Numbered from the stretch's first letter, positions 16,839 to 41,993 are shown. The stretch is 64,000 nucleotides of DNA from an uncultured Gammaproteobacteria bacterium (GCA_963777585.1 CAVZRB010000017.1:21227-85226); one strand, 5' to 3'. The notes: generated from the sequence alone by a model not told the origin. A program made the numbers and translations.

Positions 16839-17336
16839 ATGGCCAACAAAGCGCGAATTAAAATTAAGTTTTTTGTATCTTATGCGCACGCAGATGATGA
16901 ATATGCAAGTGCCTTTATTGATGAATTCAAGGAAATGTCTGCGCCATCAGAAAAATACGAATACGTATTTTGGCAAGATACAGAGATTCTACCCGGCGAA
17001 AATTGGCGGGATGAAATACGGGAAGCACTCATCAATTGCGAAGTTGGCTTGTTATTAATTAGCCCGGCATTTCTGGGGTCCAAATTCATTGATGCTGAGG
17101 AACTGCCAAGGCTTGTCGGCGATCAAAAAAAGCCCATCATTCCTATCATGCTCAAAATGGTCAATCTTAAGCGACACAACCTTAAGGGACTGGATGGTAA
17201 TCAGATCTTTCGCCTAAAAGTAGAAGGTGTCAAAGCATTAAAGTCTTTTGCGCAATGCAGCTTGTCTCAAAGAACCGATTTTGTATACGACCTATTTGAC
17301 AAGGTAGAAATCAGGCTCGACAAATTATACGGCTAA
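16839..17336 (+). CDS. Stand-alone TIR-domain protein (TIR_2)
   Basis: FFVSYAHAD, FWQDTEILPGENW..EI, LLISPAFLGS.FI..EEL. Confidence 0.85.
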   Translation: MANKARIKIKFFVSYAHADDEYASAFIDEFKEMSAPSEKYEYVFWQDTEILPGENWRDEIREALINCEVGLLLISPAFLGSKFIDAEELPRLVGDQKKPIIPIMLKMVNLKRHNLKGLDGNQIFRLKVEGVKALKSFAQCSLSQRTDFVYDLFDKVEIRLDKLYG

Positions 17337-17651
17337 CGCGTTAATTGTATTCGGATGCACCGCTATGCTCGGTTAATTCCTGGGTTATCTTGTCTCAAAA
17401 TACAAATTTGACTTGACGGAACGCGCACCGCTTGATGGCAGGAGAGCCCGAATTGGGACAGCATGGATGCGCAGAGCGCTTGGATAATACTCAGAAATTT
17501 GGGTAGCACTGGCGGGGAAGGCTCCTCACTGGTGCTTAGGTAGAGCAATTCGGGAGGGGGTGTTTAAAAGCGTACGGGGACGTATGCTTTAAAGCCGACC
17601 GGACGATTTGCGGATTAGAGCGATGAAGGTTATAGAATTAATTATATATGT

Positions 17652-19711: not shown

Positions 19712-19959
19712 TGCGAAGCACAGCAAAGCACACAAGCGGATGAACTTTGCGCGCCGCTGAGCTCCCGTTACCTTGTTACAAAATACAAATTTTTGACTGA
19801 CTGAAATGGATCATTAGCTACAGCAGTTGAATGGTAGTCAAACATTTCTGGATAAATTTTAAGTGCCTCTGTCTTTCTTGACTTATGTAAATAGACTTGA
19901 GAAGCTGAAACTATTCGATAAAACCGAGTTCAAAAGATCATCAAATTTAAGGAGATGCC

Positions 19960-21288
19960 ATGCTAACACGACGTCGCTTTCTAGGTTATGGCGGGGCAGG
20001 GATTCTGGCCCTTACCGCTGGTTGTAGACCTGAAAATTTCAATTGGCTGCCAAATCAGGAAGAGGCATCTTCAACTATAAACCTTTCGCTGGCAGACAAG
20101 GCAAAGTTCAAGAAGCTGAAAAATCTTCTCTTAGGGTATCCAATCAATATGAATACTCCACCCGAGGATTTTTTTGCCTGGCGGAGACAACTACTCGATG
20201 CGGGAATCAATACTTTTGCCTACAATAATGTGGGAAACCCGTTCAAAGACAGTTCTATCCCATTCAATACCCACGATTTTGAACGTGAACTCATCCTGAG
20301 ATTTGGCAAGTTATATGCCTTTCCTCCAAACAACACATGGGGCTTTCTTTCAAACAGCGGTACTGACAGTAATATGCATGGCATGTACATGGGGCGGACC
20401 ATTTTAAAAGGACGTACCGGAGTGTTGCCGAAAGCTTATTTCACCAAAGAAGCACATTATTCGATGCAGATTTTACGGGACTTGCTGGGGCTTGAAACAG
20501 TTTTTGTGGAAACACTTCCGGATGGCGGCATGGATCCCAATGACCTAAGGCAGAAGCTAGCCGATAACTCATCTCATCCGGCATTAGTGATAGCGACGAT
20601 CGGGACCACCTTTAAAGGCGCTATTGATCAGGTTGATGGTATTCAGGAAGTGTTAAAAGGCTATTCAAGTTATCTGCATTTGGATGCGGCATTATTTGGC
20701 GGTTACCTGCCATTTACCGCCCATGCCGGGGAAGTGATCATACCAATCCAAGAGCACACCCAGCTCTAGCTCGATATGATTCGATAGCTGTTTCCTGCCA
20801 TAAATTTTTCGGTTTTCCATCGCCTGCCGGTTTATTCATTACCACAAAAAGCCATTTTGATGAGTTTAATGAACTTTTTAGTCAAATTCATAATCCTGAA
20901 TATATCCATCATGTGCCGGGAACGATAACCTGCTCCAGAGATGCCGTAAAACCGGCGGAATTTTATTTCTTTTCAACGCCCATCGTCCATGGCCAAGCTA
21001 GCTAAAGACGCGCAGTCTATGTTGCAAAACACGGTTTACCTGATGGAACAAATGCAAGCCCACTTTTCCCATTTACAACCCACACGTGCTAACGATCTTT
21101 CTAATACCATTTTTTTTAGAAAGCCCAGCGACCGGATTGTGAAAAAATATTCACTGGCAACCATGCATTTGGAGATAAATCATCAAAAACAGGATTATGC
21201 GCATGTTGTGGTGATGCCGCATGCAAACCGGGACGTATTAACAGAATTTCTGACCGATCTGGATAAAGATTCGATTACCAGATTATGA
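19960..21288 (+). CDS. Group II PLP-dependent decarboxylase (histidine/serine decarboxylase clade) with Tat-lipoprotein signal; frameshifted
   Basis: TRRRFLG...LTAGC signal; GYPIN, NNVGNPF, GTDSN, HYS, GTTFKGAID, HLDAAL, DSIAVSCHKFFG (PLP Lys), TITCSR. Confidence 0.85.
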
Positions 21289-21558
21289 CGGATTAAAAAA
21301 TAGAATTGTTAGGACCGATGATTTTGATATTTAATCATTTAAAGCCAATTCAAATTAAGCCGGAATCTGGCTGACTAGTGTTGTTTTGGTTCAGAACACA
21401 AATAATACTCAGTTTCTCAACTCATATTCTGATCAAAATTCAACCGGCGCCAACAAAAGAGGACTATATTGCAGGTGAAAAGCTCAGGATTTCACTCTAT
21501 TAATAATCAGAATTCAGAATCAGATGTTTTTTTACTCATTCAACCGGGAATTAACGCC

Positions 21559-21867
21559 ATGACCAAAGATGAATTATTAGCAAAAACGAAAGCCACCATT
21601 TACGAACAACAAGCAAAACTCGAATCACTTAAAGAAAAAGCATTAGATGAGTCGCAAGAAGCGATTGATGATGTTAGAGCTGCAATTGCCGATTTGGAAC
21701 CCAAGTTAGAGCAAGCAAAAGCTAAAGCTAAGGAAATAGCAGAAGCAGCTGATGATAAGTGGGATGATATGAAAGAGTCGTTGGAGTCAGGATGGGACGA
21801 AGCATCATCAAAATTGGAAGAAGGCTGGAATAGCTTAACCTCATCCGTAAAATCATTTTTCTCTTAA
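21559..21867 (+). CDS. Small coiled-coil stress-response-like protein (sll1863-like)
   Basis: Charged coiled coil with ...ADDKWDDMKESLESGW pattern. Confidence 0.6.
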   Translation: MTKDELLAKTKATIYEQQAKLESLKEKALDESQEAIDDVRAAIADLEPKLEQAKAKAKEIAEAADDKWDDMKESLESGWDEASSKLEEGWNSLTSSVKSFFS

Positions 21868-22016
21868 AAATAAGAACAAACACTAATGACTCGGGTAACT
21901 TCCATGTTTCATTGGTAAAGTAAGGTTATGAAAAACTCAGAAGTATCTGCAAACGTTTATCTTGCAGATACTTCTGGGTTACATAATCAACACCGATTTA
22001 ACATTAGACCTCGAGT

Positions 22017-22880
22017 TTATTTTTTTGCCGCAGCTGAAAAGGTATCGCAAGTCGCTATATCTCCACTTTCCAATCCTTTACGAAGCCAAAAAGTGCGTTG
22101 CTCCGATGATCCGTGGGTAAATGATTCCGGGCTTATTCTTTTCCCGGCGCGTTTCAATAGGCGGTCATCTCCTATTGCGGAGGCGGCCCTGAGTCCTTCA
22201 TCGACATCTCCTGGTTCCAAAAGACTGCGATATTTATCGGCATAGTGAGCCCATACCCCCGCAAAACAATCCGCTTGCAATTCTAATAAGACCGATAAAG
22301 CATTGGCCTGAGTCGCACCGCTACGACTTTGCAAATCATGGACTTTGCCGGAAATCCCCAAGAGGTTTTGCACATGATGACCGACTTCGTGTCCAATGAC
22401 ATACGCTTGAGCGAAATCGCCCGGGGCGCCCAAGTGATCCAATTCCCGGAAAAACCCCAGATCGAGGTAAACTTTTCTATCGCCAGGACAATAGAAAGGC
22501 CCCGTAGCTGCGGAATTATATCCGCATGCGGATGAAACTTGATCGGAAAACAAAACCAGTTTCGGCACTTGATATTGCATGCCCATGCGAGGGAAAATCG
22601 TGGCCCAGGTATCTTCGGTATCCGCCAATATGGCGGATACAAATTGAGCGGATTCATCGTTGCCAGGCGTTTGTCGAGGGGAGACCGCAGTTGTCGAACC
22701 GCCCTCAAGGAACCCTTGCGATAGCATAGCTAATAGCTCCAAAGGGTTTTCTCCCAATGCGACTCCTATTAGCATTACGACCACCAGCAGACCACCGCTC
22801 AGTTTAATCGATGACCCGCCGATACGCGCACCACGGCGATCCTCAACGTTATCGCTTTGTCTACCTTTTTTCCACAACAT
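22017..22880 (-). CDS. ypfJ: Neutral zinc metallopeptidase (YpfJ/KPN_02809 family)
   Basis: RQSDNVEDRRG, GPFYCPGD, HEVGHHVQ, ELQADC, IGDD, SFTHG. Confidence 0.92.
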   Translation of the reverse strand: MLWKKGRQSDNVEDRRGARIGGSSIKLSGGLLVVVMLIGVALGENPLELLAMLSQGFLEGGSTTAVSPRQTPGNDESAQFVSAILADTEDTWATIFPRMGMQYQVPKLVLFSDQVSSACGYNSAATGPFYCPGDRKVYLDLGFFRELDHLGAPGDFAQAYVIGHEVGHHVQNLLGISGKVHDLQSRSGATQANALSVLLELQADCFAGVWAHYADKYRSLLEPGDVDEGLRAASAIGDDRLLKRAGKRISPESFTHGSSEQRTFWLRKGLESGDIATCDTFSAAAKK

Positions 22881-23005
22881 GATGTTTACACGCCAAACCC
22901 GGTGGTCAAAAATAATAAATATTCAATTTGATCTGTTAAGTTACACTGAAAGCCTCAAAGAGTTTGCTTGTTTCAATTTTGGAGCGGCTTTAAGTGCGCT
23001 TAAGT

Positions 23006-23713
23006 TTAAGGGATACGTAAATGTTGGCCCGGAAATATGCGATCCGGGTTGCTTAAAATATCCCGATTCGCATCAAAAATACGTTGCCATTGATTAGCAT
23101 CGTTGTAGAACTGTTTGGAAATCTTAGACAGCGTATCGCCACTGGCTACAGTGTAGGTTCGAACGTTTGCAGTCGCCGAACCCATGCCTGTATCAACAGA
23201 GCCGGCGCTTGTGATTGTTGTTTGTTGCTCTGGATTGGGCGATTGTTCCTCATCTTCTTTATTGCCAAAATAGGATGCCGCCACTTTCGCTGCAACCGCG
23301 GCCCCCACTCCACCAAGAAGCACTTTGCCCCATGTCGGGAAACTGCTTGATTCGGGTACCTTGCCGTCTGGCGTCAGTTTATCGACCATAGCGGGTAAAA
23401 CCTGCGAGAGCACTGATGCGCCTTGAGACTCAGGGATGCCTGCCTGTTGAGCCAGAGCAGCAATCTGGTCTTTGCCCAATACATTGGCCAATTGATCGGG
23501 GTTTATGCTCTTGTTTTCTCCCGTACCAACCCAGGACGCGGCAAGATCACCCAAGCCTGATTGTTGAAATTTATTAACCAACCCGTCTATGCCGCCCATT
23601 GTCTGCAGCATTCCCAATGCGCCATTCAATAAATTTTGGCTTTGGTTTTCAGTTTGTCCTGAAGAATTACTTGCTCCGATGGCGGATTTAACTATTTCTG
23701 TGAAAAGGCTCAT
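23006..23713 (-). CDS. YidB (DUF937)-LysM fusion protein
   Basis: YidB motifs [22 protein letters not shown]...[11 protein letters not shown]; C-terminal Lys[14 protein letters not shown]...[10 protein letters not shown]; start MSLFTE after GGAG. Confidence 0.85.
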
Positions 23714-24148
23714 AAGGTTTCTCCTCGTGAAATTAGCATAAGATAAAAAGCATTCAGACACTAAAGTCTTCAAGAAATCGCAGAAAAAACTTTCAGTGGC
23801 TTGAAAGCCAATTTATCGCATTATTGCTTGAAAAGATAGAAAATTTATACTGCTCAAATGCTTAAAAGTATTGAGTTTTAGCTTTAGAAAAACACTCATT
23901 CAAAACATAAATGTAACATTCGGTAGTGGCGGTATTTAACATGGCTATCTCCAATAATCCCATGGCCTCCATGATTCATTGGCAAGAAGGCTATGCCCAT
24001 AGAGGCATAAAAAAGCGAAGAAACTTTCAAAAAAGAGTGGTTTGGGATTGGCATTAACCCCAGAACCAAGGGCTGCATAGTGTTGGCAACTCGTTGCAGC
24101 ATGGTTCTGGTTTTAAGTAGAAATTAATGAGGTTCCCCAATGTGCTAT

Positions 24149-24523
24149 TTAGTTCAACAATTCTGGCGGGATATTACCACCGTTCTGTGCGAGTTTTTGC
24201 AATACGGTTTTATGCAGCCAAATATTCATTTGGGCTGAGTCTCCCATTGCTTGGGCTGGACAACCCAATTCTGTCGCAAGTTCTTTACGCGCGGTTAAAC
24301 TGCTGTCAAGCCCAAGTAATTTTAACAAATCGACAATCGAAACTTTCCAGTTAAGCTTTTCTGCACTGGAAGCGGCTAATCCTTCCAATTTTGTTACGAC
24401 ATCGACCACAGCAATTGCAGCAGCAGGGGCAGAAGCTGTTGCTGGTTGGCTTGCATCAGGTGCTTCCGCAGCGGCAGCATTACGAATGCCCAGTTTTTCA
24501 AGAATGGAATTAAAGAGACTCAT
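24149..24523 (-). CDS. DUF3597 family protein
   Basis: LNWKVSIVDLLKLLGLDSSL.ARKELA.ELG...SA.MNIWLHK.V...LA.NGG. Confidence 0.9.
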   Translation of the reverse strand: MSLFNSILEKLGIRNAAAAEAPDASQPATASAPAAAIAVVDVVTKLEGLAASSAEKLNWKVSIVDLLKLLGLDSSLTARKELATELGCPAQAMGDSAQMNIWLHKTVLQKLAQNGGNIPPELLN

Positions 24524-24871
24524 GGTTGATCCTTAAATAGTATAGTTGAGTTGTAGTGGTAATTTTGCATGACTGAAATAAGCAATTCAACTCATACAAA
24601 AATTGTGAATAATTACTTTAGCACTATATCTAACGTTAGTCATTCATGTGCAAAATATTTTGACTTTGGAAAAGCTTAATACTTAAATCCTGCAATCTGG
24701 AAAATAGTGGACTCTGTTTGACAGGAATGAGGTTTGAAATACACGTGAGGCATTGGGGAAGGCGGGTTACGACGGGCGGATAATCCAGATGATGACGGAT
24801 GACATGTTTTTTGCGCGTCTAACTCATCTACGCTTTTAGTGAAAAATTAACTGAATCAGTTGCAAACTTAC

Positions 24872-24904
24872 AAGAAAACGGGGCAAGGATTTGTCCTTGC
24901 CCCG
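24872..24904 (-). terminator. Rho-independent terminator of the secreted protein gene
   Basis: CGGGGCAAGGA-N4-TCCTTGCCCCG hairpin, with T-rich tail on the minus strand. Confidence 0.75.
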
Positions 24905-24942
24905 TCGATTTGACTACCGGCTAACGCGGGATTACCCGAACG

Positions 24943-25947
24943 TTATTGTTGCGGCAGAACCTTGCATGACAAGGCATGCGCAATCAGCCAAATACCGTCA
25001 CTGTTCGTGTCGGACACCGAGAAGGTGGCAGTGTGGCTTTGGACTTCTGGATCGAAATACCGGGTATACCCGTACTGACCCGGCGCGGTTGTAGTCGGCT
25101 TGTAGTCACCCGCGTAGATGTGCAGTTCCTTCATCACGTCGCTGGGTAGGTTATACGTCACCGTTACTTCCGATCCGGTCCAGTTTACCGTTAGAGTCCC
25201 GACCAATTCCCCGTTGGAAGTTTTGTTCAAACCGGCACCCTTCCAAATCTGGTAGGTCGTTTCGCCTGGGGTCGCCAGATTAATGGCCCAGCCCCACCGA
25301 TTTTTGATCAGATTGAGCGACAGCAGTTTCTCAGGGTTGCTCTTCGGATCAGTGGTGAATACATAGCTACCCTTGGCGAACGCCGTTTCGCACTCACCCA
25401 CTTGTGGCGGTACGGTAGTATCGCAGCACAGGTTGTATTCACTATAGAACCACCAACGCGGCCCGGTTCCGGGTTTGTCGCCACCCCATGCTGTCTCGTG
25501 ACTGGTATTCCCTTGTCCGTCGTCCATATTAACCTCGGCGTGGGTCGCTACATAAAGCTTCAGTGGACACGCCAGCGCAATATCCGTAATGCTTAGTGTG
25601 CTCAACGGAACTATGACCGTGTAGGAAGTTAATCCAGTTGCATCCGGTTTGTACGGAAACTGGCCGGGGACAGGAATACCTTGCTTATTCTTGGGTATAA
25701 GCGCCAAGTCAGTACCCGCCCATAGATGTAGGGTTCCAAACGTGGCACCCGGGTAGTCCAGATCGTATTTCACATAAAGATTTTCGGCGTCATTAGAGAC
25801 GGTAACTGAACCCACATCCATGTTTTGGCCAGCGGTGAGATTCCAGGTCGTGGTCCCGCATGCCGTCTCGCTGGACGCCAATGCTGATCCCCCTGTCAGG
25901 AATACCCCAACCAGTGCGATGAATCGAATTAGTTTTAAAAAAGTCAT
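24943..25947 (-). CDS. Secreted protein of unknown function with two related beta-rich domains
   Basis: Signal peptide ending ALA; duplicated motifs AG..VG.(V/L)TV, LH(L/I)(W/Y)AG, PGQ(F/Y).Y, HA, ETA(W/F), RW. Confidence 0.8.
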   Translation of the reverse strand: MTFLKLIRFIALVGVFLTGGSALASSETACGTTTWNLTAGQNMDVGSVTVSNDAENLYVKYDLDYPGATFGTLHLWAGTDLALIPKNKQGIPVPGQFPYKPDATGLTSYTVIVPLSTLSITDIALACPLKLYVATHAEVNMDDGQGNTSHETAWGGDKPGTGPRWWFYSEYNLCCDTTVPPQVGECETAFAKGSYVFTTDPKSNPEKLLSLNLIKNRWGWAINLATPGETTYQIWKGAGLNKTSNGELVGTLTVNWTGSEVTVTYNLPSDVMKELHIYAGDYKPTTTAPGQYGYTRYFDPEVQSHTATFSVSDTNSDGIWLIAHALSCKVLPQQ

Positions 25948-26129
25948 ATGTATAACCTATGTTCAATGAATCTATTAACGTATCAGGCTTTTACGCCTGA
26001 TCCAGTTTCAACCAGAAGACTTCAATCGTCTTATTTAAATTCACATAAACACTCTGATTCATGTGAACACTCTGGGTCGGTTGATTTGCTGTCTTATTCA
26101 GTCAGCAATCCCAGTTGCTAATATTGCAA

Positions 26130-26145
26130 CCAAGAACCGTGCCAA
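26130..26145 (-). promoter_or_regulatory. Sigma54 -24/-12 promoter
   Basis: Minus strand TTGGCACGGTTCTTGG: perfect -24 TGGCACG, -12 TTGG (one mismatch to TTGC); faces the 24943-25947 gene. Confidence 0.7.
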
Positions 26146-26173
26146 TTTTGTATAGATTAAAAAATATAATTAA

Positions 26174-26186
26174 TTTCAATGGGTTA
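26174..26186. promoter_or_regulatory. IHF-like site between enhancer and promoter
   Basis: TTTCAATGGGTTA versus consensus WATCAANNNNTTR, preceded by an AT tract. Confidence 0.5.
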
Positions 26187-26230
26187 ATTATCTTTTGCTT
26201 GTGAGGCGAGTTGAGAGGCTCGCGTGAGCG

Positions 26231-26293
26231 TGAGACATATGTGCGGCATCACAATTGTCTCACTATCTGTCTCATGAGACAGCATATGAGACA
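26231..26293. promoter_or_regulatory. Upstream activator (enhancer) array of five TGAGACA/TGTCTCA heptamers
   Basis: Heptamers at 26231, 26256, 26268, 26275 and 26287; 26256-26293 forms TGTCTCA-N5-TGTCTCA|TGAGACA-N5-TGAGACA. Confidence 0.7.
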
Positions 26294-26386
26294 GTATTTA
26301 GGCAAAGTCTGGGATTATAGGATTTTGCGTGCTAGGTAGGGAGCGGATGGGTATTGAAAAAGTGCCCGGCACGGCTGGCAGCTGGC

Positions 26387-28905
26387 TTATCGATCCTGGG
26401 AAATGTCCAGTTCAGCCAAACGCCGGTAGAAAGTGGCCCGGCTGATACCGAGCAGTTTGGCGGCTTGTTGGCGGTTGCCGCCCGTTTTTTCTAGGGCAGC
26501 CAGAATGCGGCCCCGCTCGTCTCCCGCGGCGGCCATGGGTTCGACAACGGCGGACACTGCGCCCCGGCTGAATTCGGGCGGCAGGTCCTGGGGATTGATG
26601 CGCTCGCCTTTGCTGTGGATGACCGCGTAGTCCACGCAGGCTTTCAGCTCGCGCACATTGCCCGGCCAGTCGTAATTCAGCAGGCATTGCATGGCTTCGG
26701 TACCGAACCGGGGCTGAGTCCGGCTGGAAAAGTGATGGCTCTGGCTGAGGAATGCTTCCACCAGAAGCGGAATGTCAGTTTTGCGTTCCCGAAGGGCCGG
26801 CACATAAAGCCGTGCCACTCGAAGCCGATAGAGCAAGTCCTCGCGGAAGCGGCCTTCACGGGCCTCGTTGGCCAGATCCTTGTGCGTGGCTACCAGGATC
26901 CGTACATCCACCTTGCGTGTGCGGGTTTCTCCAAGACGGGTTATTTCTTTTTCCTGCAGCACGCGCAGCAGGCTGGCCTGCATGCTCAGGGGCAGGTCGC
27001 CGATCTCGTCCAGAAACAGGGTGCCTCCGTGAGCGGCCTCGAAAAAGCCCTCCTGATCCTTGACGGCGCCCGTAAACGCGCCCTTGCGGTGGCCGAAGAG
27101 CTGGCTGGTCAGCAGCGACTCGCTAAGGCCGGCGGAGTTAACGGCGATGAAGGCCCCGTCCTTGCGCGGACTGGCCGCATGGATGCTGTGGGCGACCAGT
27201 TCCTTGCCGACACCGGTTTCGCCATCGATCAGCACCGTCCAGTCGCCGCGCGCCACATCATCGATGAGCCGGTAAAGCTCCCGCATGGGCTCTGAGTTGC
27301 CGAGCATCCGGCCGTAGCGGCTCTCTTCGATGGCTTGCCGCAGTTGATGGATTTCGGTGACGTCGTAGAGCAGCAGAATGTGGCGGTCGGGGTCCTGGGG
27401 ATCGTCGCGTACATCGCATTCCACCCAGTATTCTTTCCGATCCGCTCCCTGCCAATGCAGGGTGATTCGATGGCGTTCGGCGGGCGGGAGGTCCAGCAAC
27501 TGCTGCAATTGCAATTTCGACTGTATCCCGAAGGGCAACACCTGATCCCAGGGCCGGCCCATGGCGGTGTTGCGGTCGATGCCGGTAAAATGTTCACAGG
27601 ATTCGCTGACAAATTCCACGCGATGATCGGCGTCCAGCATCAGGGTGCCCACCCGGAATTGATTGAGGAGAACCAACAGATTTTCCTGGCTTTTCTTGAG
27701 TTCGGCCAGTGTATGCTCGGCCAGCGCCTCGGCTGCCTTGCGCTCGGAAATGTCGCGCACGATACCCTTGAACAAGCTGCCCCGAGGGAGTTTCACCTCG
27801 GTCACAGCGAGCTCGACGGGGAATACGGTTCCGTCCTTCCGCCGCGCCGATATTTCCCGGACGGTTCCGAGCATTTTGGCTCGCCCGGTTTTCAGGTAGT
27901 TCTCAAGGTAGCGGTCATGCTGGCTGTGGTACGGCTCAGGCATCAGCAGCTTGACGTTATGGCCCAGCAGTTCTTCCGGGCTGTAGCCGAACATGCGCTC
28001 CGTCGCAGGGTTGACGGATTGGATTGTTCCGGACGTGTCGATGGTGATGATGGCATCGAGGGAGCTGTTCAGAAGGGCGCGATGGCGCGCTTCCTCTTCC
28101 TTCAGCTTGTTTTCCTTTTCCCTGATCTCGGAGATATCGGCAAAAATCGCAACCGCATGGGTGACATTGCCTTGCAGGTTATAGTATCGGAGACGCGCTG
28201 AAATGGAGCGGGATGATCCGGCCATCGCGCCGAATCTCCATGTCGGTCACGGCCACCGTGTCGCCCGCCAGGGCACGCATGATCGGCATGGCTTCAAGCG
28301 GATAGGGCTGATCGGTGCCGGCCACGGTAACCTGGCAATACGCCGCCAGATCCCCAATCATCGCGCCCGGCTCGAATATTTTTCCCGTAATGGCAGCTGG
28401 CCGCTTTGTTGGCATAGAAGTTCCGGCCCTGCGCATCCAGAACCAGTACGCCGAAAGGGATGGTTTCGAGGCATTCGTAAAATTGCCGGGCTTGCCTTTG
28501 TACTTCGGCCTGGGCTTCCCTTTGCGCCGTGACATCCGTTTGGATGCCCACGTAATGGGAGAGCTGGCCCTGGTCATCGAAAACCGGAGCCAGGCGCAGT
28601 TCATTCCAGAACAACGTCCCGTCCTTGCGGTAATTCCTGAGGACGACCGCCACTTCCCGGCGCTCGTCCAGCGCCCGACGGAGGTGATCCAAGTCGGGCT
28701 GGTCATGGTCCTCGCCTTGAAGGAACCGGCAGTTCCGGCCCAGGATTTCGTCCTTCGCGTAGCCCGTCATGACTTCAAATGCCCGGTTCACATAGACGAG
28801 AGGCGTATCGACCTGTGTCGCGTCAGCTACAGTGATGCCACAACTGGCGGAGTCCAGCGCTTTGACGATCCAGTCTGGAATTTCTTGGTGGTTAGTTACG
28901 TGCAC
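26387..28905 (-). CDS. Sigma54 enhancer-binding protein: LOV-PAS-hemePAS-PAS-AAA+-Fis HTH (two frameshifts join ORFs 28294-28905, 28179-28706 and 26387-28225)
   Basis: LOV GRNCRFLQG/NYRKDG/FWNEL/GIQ; FixL-like LMPEPYHSQHDRY; GETGVGKE, GAFTGA, LFLDEIG, FREDLLYRL, WPGNVREL; HTH AAKLLGISRATFYRRL. Confidence 0.88.
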
Positions 28906-29476
28906 AATGACTCCATTTTTTCATCAACTCAGGTTGGCAAAAAGAAACTATATTTCTGTCCTTTGGTTGACGATTCTAGTTCCCGGAAAATTCCAGTGCT
29001 GTTTTAATGCCTGAAAAATAAGTCCAGACTCTACTGGCCGTTTACGGCCAAGTACGGATATTCGGTATACGTTTTATCCAGCGAGCCGAACGAGTCTGCG
29101 ATATTTGAAACAAAACGGCATCCAATATGTACCACTTCCAGCGTTCGTTTTACAAGTTTACGGTCACATAAATACTAAAAAACAATGCGATGATGAATTT
29201 ACAGGGTCAATTTTGACTTTGTTTGCCGGTTAATATTCGATGTAAGTAACCCATTTCCTCCCTGCAGGGCTTTTCATGTAACCTGGTTTTGTTCACACAT
29301 AATATTTATGCAACAAAGCCAGTTTGACTAATGAGGAAACTGCTGAATACAGCGTCCACTGAGATTCTTGTTATCAAACCTTTACCCCATCACAAATTTA
29401 TTCCCGCTGACTTATTTGGCTGAAGGGGGATAAGTGGTCAACAAGGCCATGCCGCATTGATAACAACGATAGGCCG

Positions 29477-31250
29477 TTATCCCTTATTGCCTGCAGCCAT
29501 TTCCAGCAGCCGTTCTACACCAACCGGCTCTTCCTTAAGCAGCGGAACAACCGCATAACGTTGGGCATGCAACGTGGCGACGGCATTGATCTCGCGCAGT
29601 TCGTTGGCGGCGCGCTGGCGCAGCAAGGGCGATTTGGAAGTGGCTGCGGCAACACTGGTATTGATGATCCAGGCCCAGGGTTCGATGCCGGCACGTCGCA
29701 AGTCGGCTTGCAGGTTCGCGGCCTCCAGAACCGGCGTGGTTTCGGCCAGTGTGACAATCAGCACCTTGGTCTGTTTAGGGTCCTGCAATTGCATCATCGG
29801 CGTGGTGTAGTGCAGCCCGGAGCTGCCCATCTGGCGCGACACTTCACGGTGATAAGCGCCGGTCGCATCCAGCAGCAGCAAGGTGTGTCCGGTGGGCGCG
29901 GTATCCATCACCACGAACTTCTTGCCGGCTTCGCGGATGATGCGGGAAAACGCCTGGAATACGGCAATTTCCTCGGTACAGGGCGAGCGCAGGTCTTCTT
30001 CCAGCAGCGCACGGCCTTGCGCATCGAGCTTTGCGCCTTTGGTCTCCAAAACATGTTGACGGTAGCGCTCGGTTTCGGCTGCCGGGTCGATGCGGCTTAC
30101 GGTCAGGTTGTCGAGAGCGCCATTCAGCGTTTCGGTCAAGTGTGCCGCCGGGTCGGAGGTGGTGAGATGCACCGGCAGTCCGCGATGCGCCAGCTCGACG
30201 GCGACCGCGGCCGCCAGCGTGGTTTTGCCGACGCCGCCTTTGCCCATCAGCATCACCAGGCCATGACCGTCTTTGGCAATGTCATCGACCAGTTCGGAAA
30301 GACTGGGTTCGTCGAGCTCGATGGGGGAATCCACCCTGACGTGCCCTTGCACAGGTGTGTCAACCAGCAGTTGGCGCAGGGCATCCAGTCCGACCAGATT
30401 GAATGGCTTAAGCATGACCTCATCACAGGGCAGTCTCTTCAACACTTCGGGAATGTCGTTGAGGGCGGATCTGCTCACGTTCGTGAATGGCGGCGACCAA
30501 CGGATCATTGTCGGCTTCAGTGCGAGGCAGGATGCCGTTGATGACCAGATACTGATGCTGAAAGCCAATCGCCGCCAGTTCTTCATGCGTGCGGGCGACT
30601 TCGCGCAAGGTGGCTTGCTGGGCACGGGCCACCAGAATCAGCCGGGTACGGGTCGCATCGGCCAGCGCATCCACTGCCGCCTTGTATTGCTCCCGCTGCT
30701 TTTCCAGGCCGGCCAACGGGCCGAGACAGGACGCATCGCCTTTGCCTTCTTCAAGAAAGCCGCTCCAGGCGCCGGGCAGTTGCAACAGGCGAATGGTATG
30801 GCCGGTGGGTGCCGTATCGAAAACGATGTGATCGTAGCCGGCGGTCAGCGCCGAATCGGTCAGCAGCGCGGTGAATTCGTCAAACGCCGCAATTTCGGTG
30901 GTGCAGGCGCCGGACAGTTGTTCTTCGATGCCTTTCACCACCGCTTCCGGCAACACGCCGCGCACCGGGCCGACGATGCGGTCGCGGTAGGCCTGGGCCG
31001 CGGCTTGCGGATCGATTTCCAGCGCCGCCAAACCCGGCACGGCCGGAATGGCGGTGATCTGGTTGCCGATGCTGATGCCGAACACCTGGCCGACGTTGGA
31101 GGCCGGGTCGGTGCTGACCAGCAGCACCTGCTGCCCGGCATCCGCCAGCTGTATCGCCGTGGCGCAGGCAATCGAGGTCTTGCCTACGCCGCCCTTGCCG
31201 GTAAAAAACAGAAAGCGCGGCGGCTGGTCGAGAAATTTCATGTCAGTCAT
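29477..31250 (-). CDS. arsA: Arsenical pump-driving ATPase (frameshift near 30470)
   Basis: Two GKGGVGKT P-loops, two DTAPTGHT motifs, SGACTTE, SPCTEE. Confidence 0.93.
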
Positions 31251-31272
31251 GATGACATCTCCAAAGGATTGT

Positions 31273-31630
31273 TTAACAGCAGCTGCTGCCGCCACAGCAA
31301 CCGGATTCTGGCTTTTTCTTCACGCTTGGGCAATCCCGGCCCAACGTGCCAGTTCGTCGCGATTCGGATAGCGCCCGCCAACGCGACTTCGCCATCGACC
31401 AGAATCAACGGCAGCGCTTCCGCGCCGGAACGCTCCAGAAAACCTTTCACGACCGGGTTTTCGGCAAAAGCCATCGGTTGCTGGGCCAGATTGAAGCGCT
31501 CGATCTGCGCGCCGTTTTGCTTGGCCCAATCGACATCGGCAGAAAAGCCGACCAATTGTTGATCGACGTCCACACCGCAGACGCCGGTGCTGCAACACAA
31601 GGCGGGGTCAAATACTTGAATGCTTGTCAT
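31273..31630 (-). CDS. arsD: Arsenic metallochaperone (frameshift near 3' end)
   Basis: FDPALCCSTGVCG, RFNLAQQP, LPLILVDG, C-terminal CC pairs. Confidence 0.92.
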
Positions 31631-31648
31631 GATGTATCTCCTTAAAGT

Positions 31649-31830
31649 TTAGGGTAACAAAGTGCCGATGCGGTCCAGCTCCGCTTTTTTAGGATTGCCC
31701 AATATCGCGGACTTGCTGTTCAAGCGCCAGCCGTTCCAGACTTTCTGGGTGCAAACTTGTTAACAGCGCGATTCACCGTTCCAGAACGGCGAACGCCATG
31801 CACATGAATGCGTTTCATAAAACAGATTCC
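31649..31830 (-). pseudogene. arsC: Remnant C-termini of arsenate reductase(s) (LMW-PTP-type ArsC)
   Basis: AFAVLER*IALLTSLHPESLERLALEQQVRDIGQS* followed by a second tail KAELDRIGTLLP*; no N-terminal catalytic motif. Confidence 0.55.
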
Positions 31831-41480: not shown

Positions 41481-41993
41481 TCAACCTTGCTTTTTAGCGA
41501 ACGGGGACAATGTACCATCCTCAACATTAATTGTGTAGGCCCGGCCAAAACCCGCAACATATCGGCCGCTTTCCGGGCGTAAGGCAAATAAGTGAAAATC
41601 GGATAACGACCGTAATAAACTGACAACCTCGCCAAATTTATCCTGCAACGCGTGCAACTGTGTAGTGTAAATTGGATCATCGCGCTCCAGTTCTTTGACA
41701 CAACAGTTGAATACCGCACGTTCGCGCGCAAAAAGATTACGGGTCTCGGATTCCTGGCGAATAAACATGACCGAGGCCTGCGGGTTATTCAATAAGTTGG
41801 GAGTATGGCCAGCAAGCTCGCTGACAAAGATATAGAAACACCCCGCCTGGTCTCGTACAAAGGGAGCGTAGCTAAGATCTGGCACGCAGTTTGCCGAAGC
41901 CGTCGATAGCAACAGTGTTTGCTGTGTGGCAAGCAGTTCCTGTAAATCGATTGCCCTTTCTGTCAGGTTGTCTGTTTCGTTCATTTTATGCAT
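41481..41993 (-). CDS. Pyridoxamine 5'-phosphate oxidase-like / HugZ(HutZ)-like split-barrel protein
   Basis: SYAPFV, YIFVSELA.HT.NL, FARER, DFHLF...GRYVAGFGRAY. Confidence 0.8.
   Translation of the reverse strand: MHKMNETDNLTERAIDLQELLATQQTLLLSTASANCVPDLSYAPFVRDQAGCFYIFVSELAGHTPNLLNNPQASVMFIRQESETRNLFARERAVFNCCVKELERDDPIYTTQLHALQDKFGEVVSLLRSLSDFHLFALRPESGRYVAGFGRAYTINVEDGTLSPFAKKQG

Follow-up and report, generated by a model that had tools for sequence, protein, structure and literature searches.

We analysed a 64,000-nucleotide stretch of DNA from an uncultured Gammaproteobacteria bacterium (the window), corresponding to G000:C17:21227-85226 of the source metagenome-assembled genome (MAG) G000 (2.68 Mb, 23 contigs, 71% complete). 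It carries a candidate sigma-54 system in which the gene of a putative bacterial enhancer-binding protein (bEBP), referred to as the activator, is followed by an enhancer or upstream activating sequence (UAS), a site resembling those of integration host factor (IHF), a sigma-54-type promoter, the gene of a putative secreted protein, referred to as X, and a terminator. The initial annotation had listed these parts in this order on the minus strand, and all of them are present there at their coordinates. It had also taken the host for a probable methanotroph; indeed, the genome carries pmoA/amoA, its closest relative G007 is a Methylobacter sp., and the host of the module is a Methylobacter methanotroph. 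The features, at window positions unless a contig is named, are:

24877-24906, minus strand: intrinsic terminator after X, with a 13-pair stem (8 GC pairs), a 4-nt loop and a T-rich tail
24943-25947, minus strand: open reading frame (ORF) of the target X, 334 aa, with a signal-peptide-like N-terminus
25948-26118, minus strand: hairpin-rich 5' leader of about 171 nt with a predicted 5' end (conservation and RNAalifold)
26130-26145, minus strand: sigma-54-type promoter TTGGCACGGTTCTTGG, TTGGCAC-N5-TTGG, with a perfect -24 and a -12 without C
26174-26186, plus strand: IHF-like site reading TTTCAATGGGTTA, a 12/13 match to WATCAANNNNTTR
26231-26293, both orientations: enhancer of five exact TGTCTCA/TGAGACA heptamers including the 14-bp palindrome TGTCTCATGAGACA (motif search)
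26387-28905, minus strand: activator (bEBP) gene, about 838 aa, in three ORFs read through two +1 insertions
26411-26518, minus strand: Fis-type helix-turn-helix (HTH) domain HTH_8, residues 796-831 (PF02954, 52.6 bits)
26807-27304, minus strand: sigma-54 interaction AAA+ domain, residues 534-699 (PF00158, 225 bits)
27737-28090, minus strand: FixL-type heme PAS, the third PAS, residues 272-385 (NCBIfam FixL, 122 bits)
28516-28857, minus strand: LOV domain, residues 17-130 (NCBIfam YtvA family, 163.7 bits)
28729-28731, minus strand: codon of the predicted photoactive Cys within GRNCRFLQG (LOV alignment)
G000:C4:52150-52620 (L099:6040-6600), minus strand: second cassette, a paralogous copy of the module

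Activator gene and predicted sensory domains

Comparing the activator gene with the intact 838-aa orthologue P0121 (locus L090) revealed two single-base insertions, an extra G at 28394 and an extra A at 28182, alongside 80 substitutions in 2534 aligned columns; the gene contains no other indels. Activator orthologues in relatives are all open (838-878 aa), the N-terminal activator piece of G007 is open across both insertion positions, and both extra bases are absent from Illumina-derived contigs of two other metagenomes, one from a landfill and one from groundwater. The rpoN gene, located at G000:C7:76400-78200 (L091) with Sigma54_AID, CBD and DBD detected, is itself divided by indels into three ORFs (AID; first part of CBD; remainder of CBD and DBD). 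Because rpoN is similarly broken, the orthologues and the G007 piece are open and the Illumina contigs lack both bases, assembly error is the most likely source of both frameshifts in the activator. Single-base indels are frequent in MAG G000, and broken genes there need checking before they are called pseudogenes. The neighbours of rpoN in the same MAG, a RapZ-like gene and an ABC ATPase gene, appear truncated too.

Read through both insertions, the activator has the intact domain order LOV, PAS-B, heme PAS, PAS-D, AAA+, lid and HTH_8. The LOV and FixL-type heme PAS domains named in the initial annotation were recovered by the family profiles given above as well as by alignments to the PDB, and both identities are well supported at the level of sequence. 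The best PDB relatives of the LOV domain are solved short-LOV photoreceptors (E 5e-37). Its GXNCRFLQ motif contains the adduct-forming Cys, and the flavin-contacting Asn/Gln/Arg motifs are present, aligning with those of the solved short-LOVs as CRFLQGEDHDQP, NYRKDG, FWNEL and GIQ(T/R)DVT (GIQTDVT in the activator). The heme PAS aligned along its length with FixL heme domains (8js5, 1d06; E 2e-30 to 7e-30) and has both the proximal His (BjFixL His200), kept in PEPYHSQHDRY, and the distal Arg equivalent to BjFixL Arg220, kept in GTVREIS. In the AAA+ domain, the translation contains the Walker motifs (GETGVGKE, LFLDEIG) and the GAFTGA loop, as expected of a bEBP. The protein further ends in a Fis-type HTH that putatively binds the nearby UAS, and rpoN is present in the genome.

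Enhancer, promoter and variable target genes

The symmetric enhancer of the initial annotation consists of five exact heptamers within 63 bp, out of 8 TGTCTCA/TGAGACA copies in the whole window (5.7 expected). Genome-wide, the hexamer TGTCTC/GAGACA occurs 539 times (0.2 per kb), and clusters of at least three such hexamers within 90 bp were found only twice in the 2.68-Mb genome, both times inside homologous cassettes. As about 0.1 clusters would be expected by chance (Poisson estimate), the array is not a chance feature. It lies 88-150 bp upstream of the -24 GG, in keeping with the spacing first described. Two further TGAGACA copies in the window (TTTGAGACAAG) stand on the minus strand at 17263-17269 and 17391-17397, 128 bp apart and with no sigma-54-like promoter nearby. 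A TGGCACGCAGTTTGC at 41880 is apparently within coding sequence. A symR match over the palindromic array (25.7 bits, cut-off 61) was dismissed as chance.

The second hexamer cluster, with four heptamers at G000:C4:52371-52424, lies in a paralogous copy of about 450 bp that is 82% identical. The copy carries ~100 nt from the 3' end of the activator gene, the heptamers, an IHF-like site, TTGGCACGGTTCTTGG in identical form and the initial ~130 nt of the leader; an ORF for a hydrophobic peptide of 31 aa follows. The same cassette and ORF (35 aa) are found at the orthologous place in a second species, G007 (C431, L102). Judged by this resemblance, the C4 cassette is a probable second target of the activator. 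Its presence on C4 and in G007 gives the predicted regulon at least two promoters, so that the picture of a self-contained circuit with one target gave way to one in which a further cassette stands before a conserved membrane peptide of 31-35 aa.

To compare the cis elements across hosts, we aligned orthologous loci spanning 71-95% identity (G007 and L090, 93-95%; L095, 83%; L096, 71%). G007 and L090 retain the heptamers, TTGGCAC and the IHF site, and diverge in the intervening sequence. The layout of the five heptamers (h1-h2-h3-h4-h5) recurs in L095 and in L096, which stems from a GC-rich host and whose intergenic region is otherwise unalignable. The distance from the last heptamer to the TGG downstream is 91-94 bp in five orthologous loci and 90-93 bp in four further ones; the M. 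marinus-group genomes (n=4) have the same arrays, at 91-93 bp in three of them and at 106 bp in M. marinus. In the window, the IHF-like site is placed between enhancer and promoter; it matches WATCAANNNNTTR at 13/13 positions in the same place in G007 and L095, and was not found in the GC-rich loci L096, L009 and G009. Activator, enhancer, IHF site, promoter and secreted-protein gene, proposed at the outset to form one circuit, are thus a conserved unit in orthologous loci.

The same motif also accompanies activators with other sensory inputs. G009 encodes a bEBP of the composition REC-PAS-D-AAA+-HTH (51% identical over residues 176-606), in which the recognition-helix region of HTH_8 is conserved and whose gene lies divergently beside that of a 36%-identical homologue of X; TGAGACA-N9-TGTCTCA and TTGGCATGGTTGTTGT are ~100 bp apart at this locus. 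In a Polyangiales MAG, a PAS-input paralogue is encoded beside a 59%-identical homologue of X, with four TGTCTC/GAGACA hexamers and the canonical promoter CTGGCACCCCGCGTGCT. Both paralogue loci share TGAGACA/TGTCTCA and TGGCA(C/T)-N5-(T/G)TG(T/C), and the co-occurrence of TGAGACA arrays that the initial annotation had proposed to check is seen in orthologous loci and beside REC- and PAS-input paralogues alike. On sequence criteria, three independent input variants share a DNA motif, a predicted promoter class and a target family, and this comparison strongly supports the putative regulatory link.

The predicted -24/-12 promoter stood in one half: its -24 element is perfect, and the -12 reads TTGG, not TTGC. 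Sigma-54 promoters are defined by their conserved GG and GC (PMC2831329); searching for both exactly 10 bp apart, we found the GG in place and GG as the -12 dinucleotide. In all 8 related loci compared, TGGCAC or TGGCCC is followed at canonical spacing by [T/G]TG-N, with TG at -14/-13 invariant. The promoters of the M. marinus group are canonical (TGGCACGGAGGTTGCT, TGGCATAGGAGTTGCT, TGGCCCGGCAGTTGCT) or near-canonical (TGGCACGGGCGTTGCG), the -12 of the M. marinus-group and Polyangiales loci being TTGC, TTGCG or GTGC, and the -12 C is replaced in lineages with protein X or the small peptide as cargo. As canonical GC exists in orthologues and paralogues, we take the site to behave like a sigma-54 promoter whose -12 is genuinely non-canonical in the window lineage; such a -12 could tune basal activity or enhancer dependence. 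Shifting the -12 register 4 bp downstream onto a conserved TTGCA was rejected, as this fails in L088 and violates the strict sigma-54 spacing. No sigma-70-like promoter was found in the intergenic region.

While the activator and its cis cassette form the constant unit, the cargo gene varies. X is located beside the activator in G000, G007, L090 and L096, with a fragment of X in G207, whereas the M. marinus group has an unrelated secreted protein of ~251 aa, referred to as Y, with the same enhancer geometry and a canonical -12 (L088:7885-8646, L110-L112, L114). The anticipated synteny of activator and X therefore applies to a subset of orthologues. Protein Y belongs to no Pfam family and contains the motif WCSPGYW; a distant relative of 263 aa is encoded in L095 (7071-7862) behind a window-type promoter and a retained leader. 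An IS240-family transposase fragment lies near this L095 cargo gene. All cargoes of the module are predicted exported or membrane proteins, in line with the proposal that sigma-54 controls the cell exterior (PMC3162934).

X itself has no Pfam or NCBIfam family. Protein searches returned 651 relatives, none of them named and typically 50-60% identical, from Acidobacteriota, cyanobacteria, Bacteroidota, Myxococcota, Planctomycetota and Proteobacteria according to the genome records. The protein consists of two homologous beta-sandwich domains that are colinear by hhalign (probability 98%, E 2e-13) and appear as two beta-sandwiches in an AlphaFold2 (AF2) model with a predicted local distance difference test (pLDDT) score of 82.6. 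Invariant in the family are His136, His276, His324, several Trp and Gly positions, Cys127 and Cys175. The family profile had no sequence match in the PDB (best E 0.11, an antibody scaffold), Foldseek against the PDB gave only matches of TM 0.22 or lower, VIA-align nothing but generic matches (beta-sandwich, CBM, FN3; Z up to 7.4), and the ESM Atlas, queried by features and by shape, only unnamed clusters. CrdA and PmoD were considered as fold relatives and set aside, their Z of 6.0-6.1 being at noise level. For CHRD (PF07452), 2 of 24 family members gave a sub-threshold match (E 0.005), and the X of the window gave no CHRD match even at E 10. Among 79 family neighbourhoods across phyla, no conserved partner was found outside the sigma-54 loci, and synteny was lineage-specific only (RND efflux, bestrophin, PheT). 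Our best guess, held with low confidence, is that X may bind a glycan or a metal outside the cell or in the periplasm.

The leader is ~97% identical among G007 and L090, where the enhancer-promoter spacer diverges; it is retained in L095 and thus stays with the promoter when the downstream gene changes. RNAalifold predicted several hairpins with 2 compensatory pairs, one of the hairpins being a 12-bp stem formed by an apparent 18-nt direct repeat, and no Rfam family matched the leader. RNA contigs from two freshwater-sediment metatranscriptome libraries (96-100% identity, several with zero mismatches) cover 25064-26089, that is, the X coding region and 142 nt of leader. They reach 26070 and 26089 and leave uncovered the 29-48 nt that follow the predicted start near 26118. 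No RNA contig was found over the activator or across the promoter, whereas DNA contigs cover both; for the activator gene, this is not evidence of silence at such depth. Though weak, the RNA evidence is consistent and hints that transcription begins at the proposed promoter and that X is expressed in sediment, which we take to be dark and O2-poor.

Proposed circuit and competing explanations

We consider it likely that the locus is, as a whole, a working sigma-54 module in which a light- and O2-gated one-component activator drives X, with a second cassette elsewhere in the genome and frameshifts that are artefactual. At the N-terminus of the activator, an array of four PAS domains (LOV with flavin mononucleotide, PAS-B, FixL-type heme PAS and PAS-D) would gate assembly of the ATPase by blue light and by O2 or redox state. 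The activator oligomer would bind the five heptamers at 26231-26293 through its Fis-type HTH, IHF would bend the DNA at 26174-26186, and the AAA+ domain would remodel E-sigma54 at TTGGCAC-N5-TTGG (26130-26145) via the GAFTGA loop. Transcription starting near 26118 and stopping at the terminator (24877-24906) would yield a monocistronic mRNA with a structured leader of ~171 nt and the coding sequence of the exported tandem beta-sandwich protein. The duplicated C4 cassette, which precedes the 31-aa membrane peptide, is most likely driven by this activator too. We infer DNA binding by the activator, sigma-54 dependence, binding of both cofactors, the signals with their sign, and the function of the target. 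As to sign, deoxy-FixL is the active state of FixL, and by this analogy we guess that the circuit may be ON at low O2; it is probably ON in the dark, which is likewise a guess.

Several observations weigh against this circuit. Neither insertion in the activator (28394, 28182) lies within a homopolymer run, and the insertion check was made on contigs of other metagenomes, as would suit a true pseudogene with two real +1 frameshifts, in which case the circuit would be dead or X would be under another activator. We regard this as improbable, since rpoN in three ORFs and its truncated neighbours point to pervasive assembly indels, the orthologues are all open, Illumina contigs from two metagenomes lack both bases and the gene has no lesions beyond the 80 substitutions. 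At canonical spacing, furthermore, the -12 position is taken by TTGG in the window, G207, L090, L095 and the C4 copy, by GTGA in G007, by TTGA in L096 and by TTGT in G009, whereas GC is regarded as conserved (PMC2831329); the patterns used detected no array or promoter in orthologue G099; and the RNA contigs are of low depth and come from metatranscriptome libraries, which may hold DNA. TGGCAC might then not be a functional sigma-54 promoter, with X transcribed from an unrecognised promoter and the heptamers serving autoregulation or another operator. This explanation has little chance of being correct in view of [T/G]TG at -14/-13 with exact spacing in all eight loci, the canonical GC with the same enhancer geometry in orthologues with other cargo and in the Polyangiales paralogue, the intergenic region devoid of a sigma-70-like site, and RNA contigs that stop shortly past the predicted start, none crossing the promoter.

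Blue light and O2 are assigned as signals by homology only, and the link from LOV or heme to output is a prediction. The module might work and respond to something else, with LOV acting as a flavin redox sensor as in NifL, and the heme PAS sensing NO, CO or redox state or binding no heme. In two orthologues (P0131, P0141), the adduct Cys is replaced by Pro or Gly (NPRFLQ, NGRFLQ), many orthologues have NCRFLR instead of NCRFLQ, the residue equivalent to BjFixL Arg206 is Asn in the activator, and the target RNA comes from freshwater sediment, taken to be dark. We nevertheless judge other signals to be unlikely, if conceivable: this copy and most orthologues retain the Cys and the flavin-contacting motifs, the LOV domain has bona fide short-LOV photoreceptors as its closest solved relatives, and the alignment of the heme PAS to FixL runs over its whole length, proximal His and Arg220 equivalent included. 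The light- and O2-gated module therefore remains the reading we prefer.

Relation to known regulators and origin of the module

With NtrC/NifA-class bEBPs such as XylR/DmpR, NorR, the PAS-containing TyrR and DhaR, the system shares the GAFTGA AAA+ domain, the C-terminal Fis-type HTH, a palindromic UAS, an IHF site, a -24/-12 promoter and an activator gene beside its target; it differs from them in having LOV and a FixL-type heme PAS on the activator itself and, in the window lineage, a -12 without C. To our knowledge, TGTCTCA/TGAGACA is unlike the UAS motifs of NtrC or NifA. The heme PAS resembles that of FixL/FixJ (E ~1e-30, proximal His, Arg220 equivalent), but FixL/FixJ outputs via a histidine kinase and a phosphorelay, whereas here an AAA+ activator is directly fused and the Arg206 equivalent is Asn. 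PpSB1-LOV, YtvA and EL222 have the same canonical LOV core, and EL222 is also a one-component LOV-HTH transcription factor; unlike in these photoreceptors, the effector here is a sigma-54 AAA+ ATPase. Indeed, among the 120 nearest LOV relatives listed from a search of 5.8 billion proteins, PF00158 occurred only in this orthologous family, the others being kinases, GGDEF/EAL proteins and phototropins. As in NifL-NifA, flavin-PAS redox/O2 input would control a sigma-54 activator, but NifL is a separate anti-activator with flavin adenine dinucleotide, whereas the activator carries its PAS sensors in cis, including one of LOV type with an adduct-forming Cys. AlgB is a regulator of the NtrC family. 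Of the described systems that feed photosensing into such a regulator, the nearest is BphP/KinB-AlgB of Pseudomonas aeruginosa (PMC6932827), in which a separate photoreceptor acts through a two-component system, in contrast to a photosensor fused to the activator together with a heme PAS.

Multi-PAS bEBPs, LOV and FixL heme PAS domains are each well known, and it is their combination that is new; no LOV-sigma-54 activator was found in the literature searched, which is weak evidence of novelty as most subscription journals were outside its coverage. Taken together, the locus could represent the first natural light-gated sigma-54 activator, feeding blue light and O2 into E-sigma54 remodelling through a portable cassette that is reused before exported cargoes, a joint reading whose prospects we see as evenly balanced. 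That cassette would combine the UAS, the IHF site, a structured leader and a promoter whose -12 is weak by design, and its cargoes would be X, Y and the 31-aa membrane peptide. If true, methanotrophs would have a dedicated envelope response at oxic-anoxic and light-dark interfaces, with light and O2 as oxycline cues in their ecology, and the widespread family of secreted tandem beta-sandwich proteins would gain a regulatory handle. It would also be a compact natural circuit, with sensor, DNA motif, promoter and output defined to the base and with light and oxygen acting directly on an AAA+ activator, and it would offer photobiology and optogenetics LOV sensors with an additional class of output, tightly off and dependent on an enhancer. 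As culturable members of the M. marinus/whittenburyi group carry an intact gene and a canonical promoter, the hypothesis is directly testable.

In the family sampled, the activator turned up in 9 of 251 genomes and in 5 of 36 genera, with a distant, 41%-identical protein of 1309 aa among the finds; within the genus, it was found in G000 and G007 only (n=43 genomes). At 60.0% GC against a genome mean of 47.2%, the gene belongs to the top 1.4% of 2.5-kb windows. Its GC content exceeds that of its flanks in all hosts examined, as the initial annotation had remarked for this locus. The flanks differ among near-identical relatives, L090 being divergent upstream of window position 29300 and G007 lacking window 21349-24723. 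Because of the GC excess, the patchy distribution and these variable flanks, horizontal acquisition of the module, hinted at earlier, fits the data; the GC excess might alternatively reflect an intrinsic compositional bias of the activator gene.

The segment absent at this place in G007 (~3.4 kb) encodes a Zn-metallopeptidase (PF04228) and a YidB/LysM protein, and synteny with G007 resumes at window 19813-21349, which places the indel directly downstream of the module terminator. On the other side, the upstream gene for an ArsA/ParA-like ATPase (PF02374) and adjacent sequence (window 29477-31700) have ~60% GC and are syntenic in G007 at least to window 30399, and not in L090; the block of high GC may extend beyond the activator gene. 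Elsewhere in G000, contigs C11 and C21 have 72-78% GC against the genome mean of 47% and are probably contaminants of the bin.

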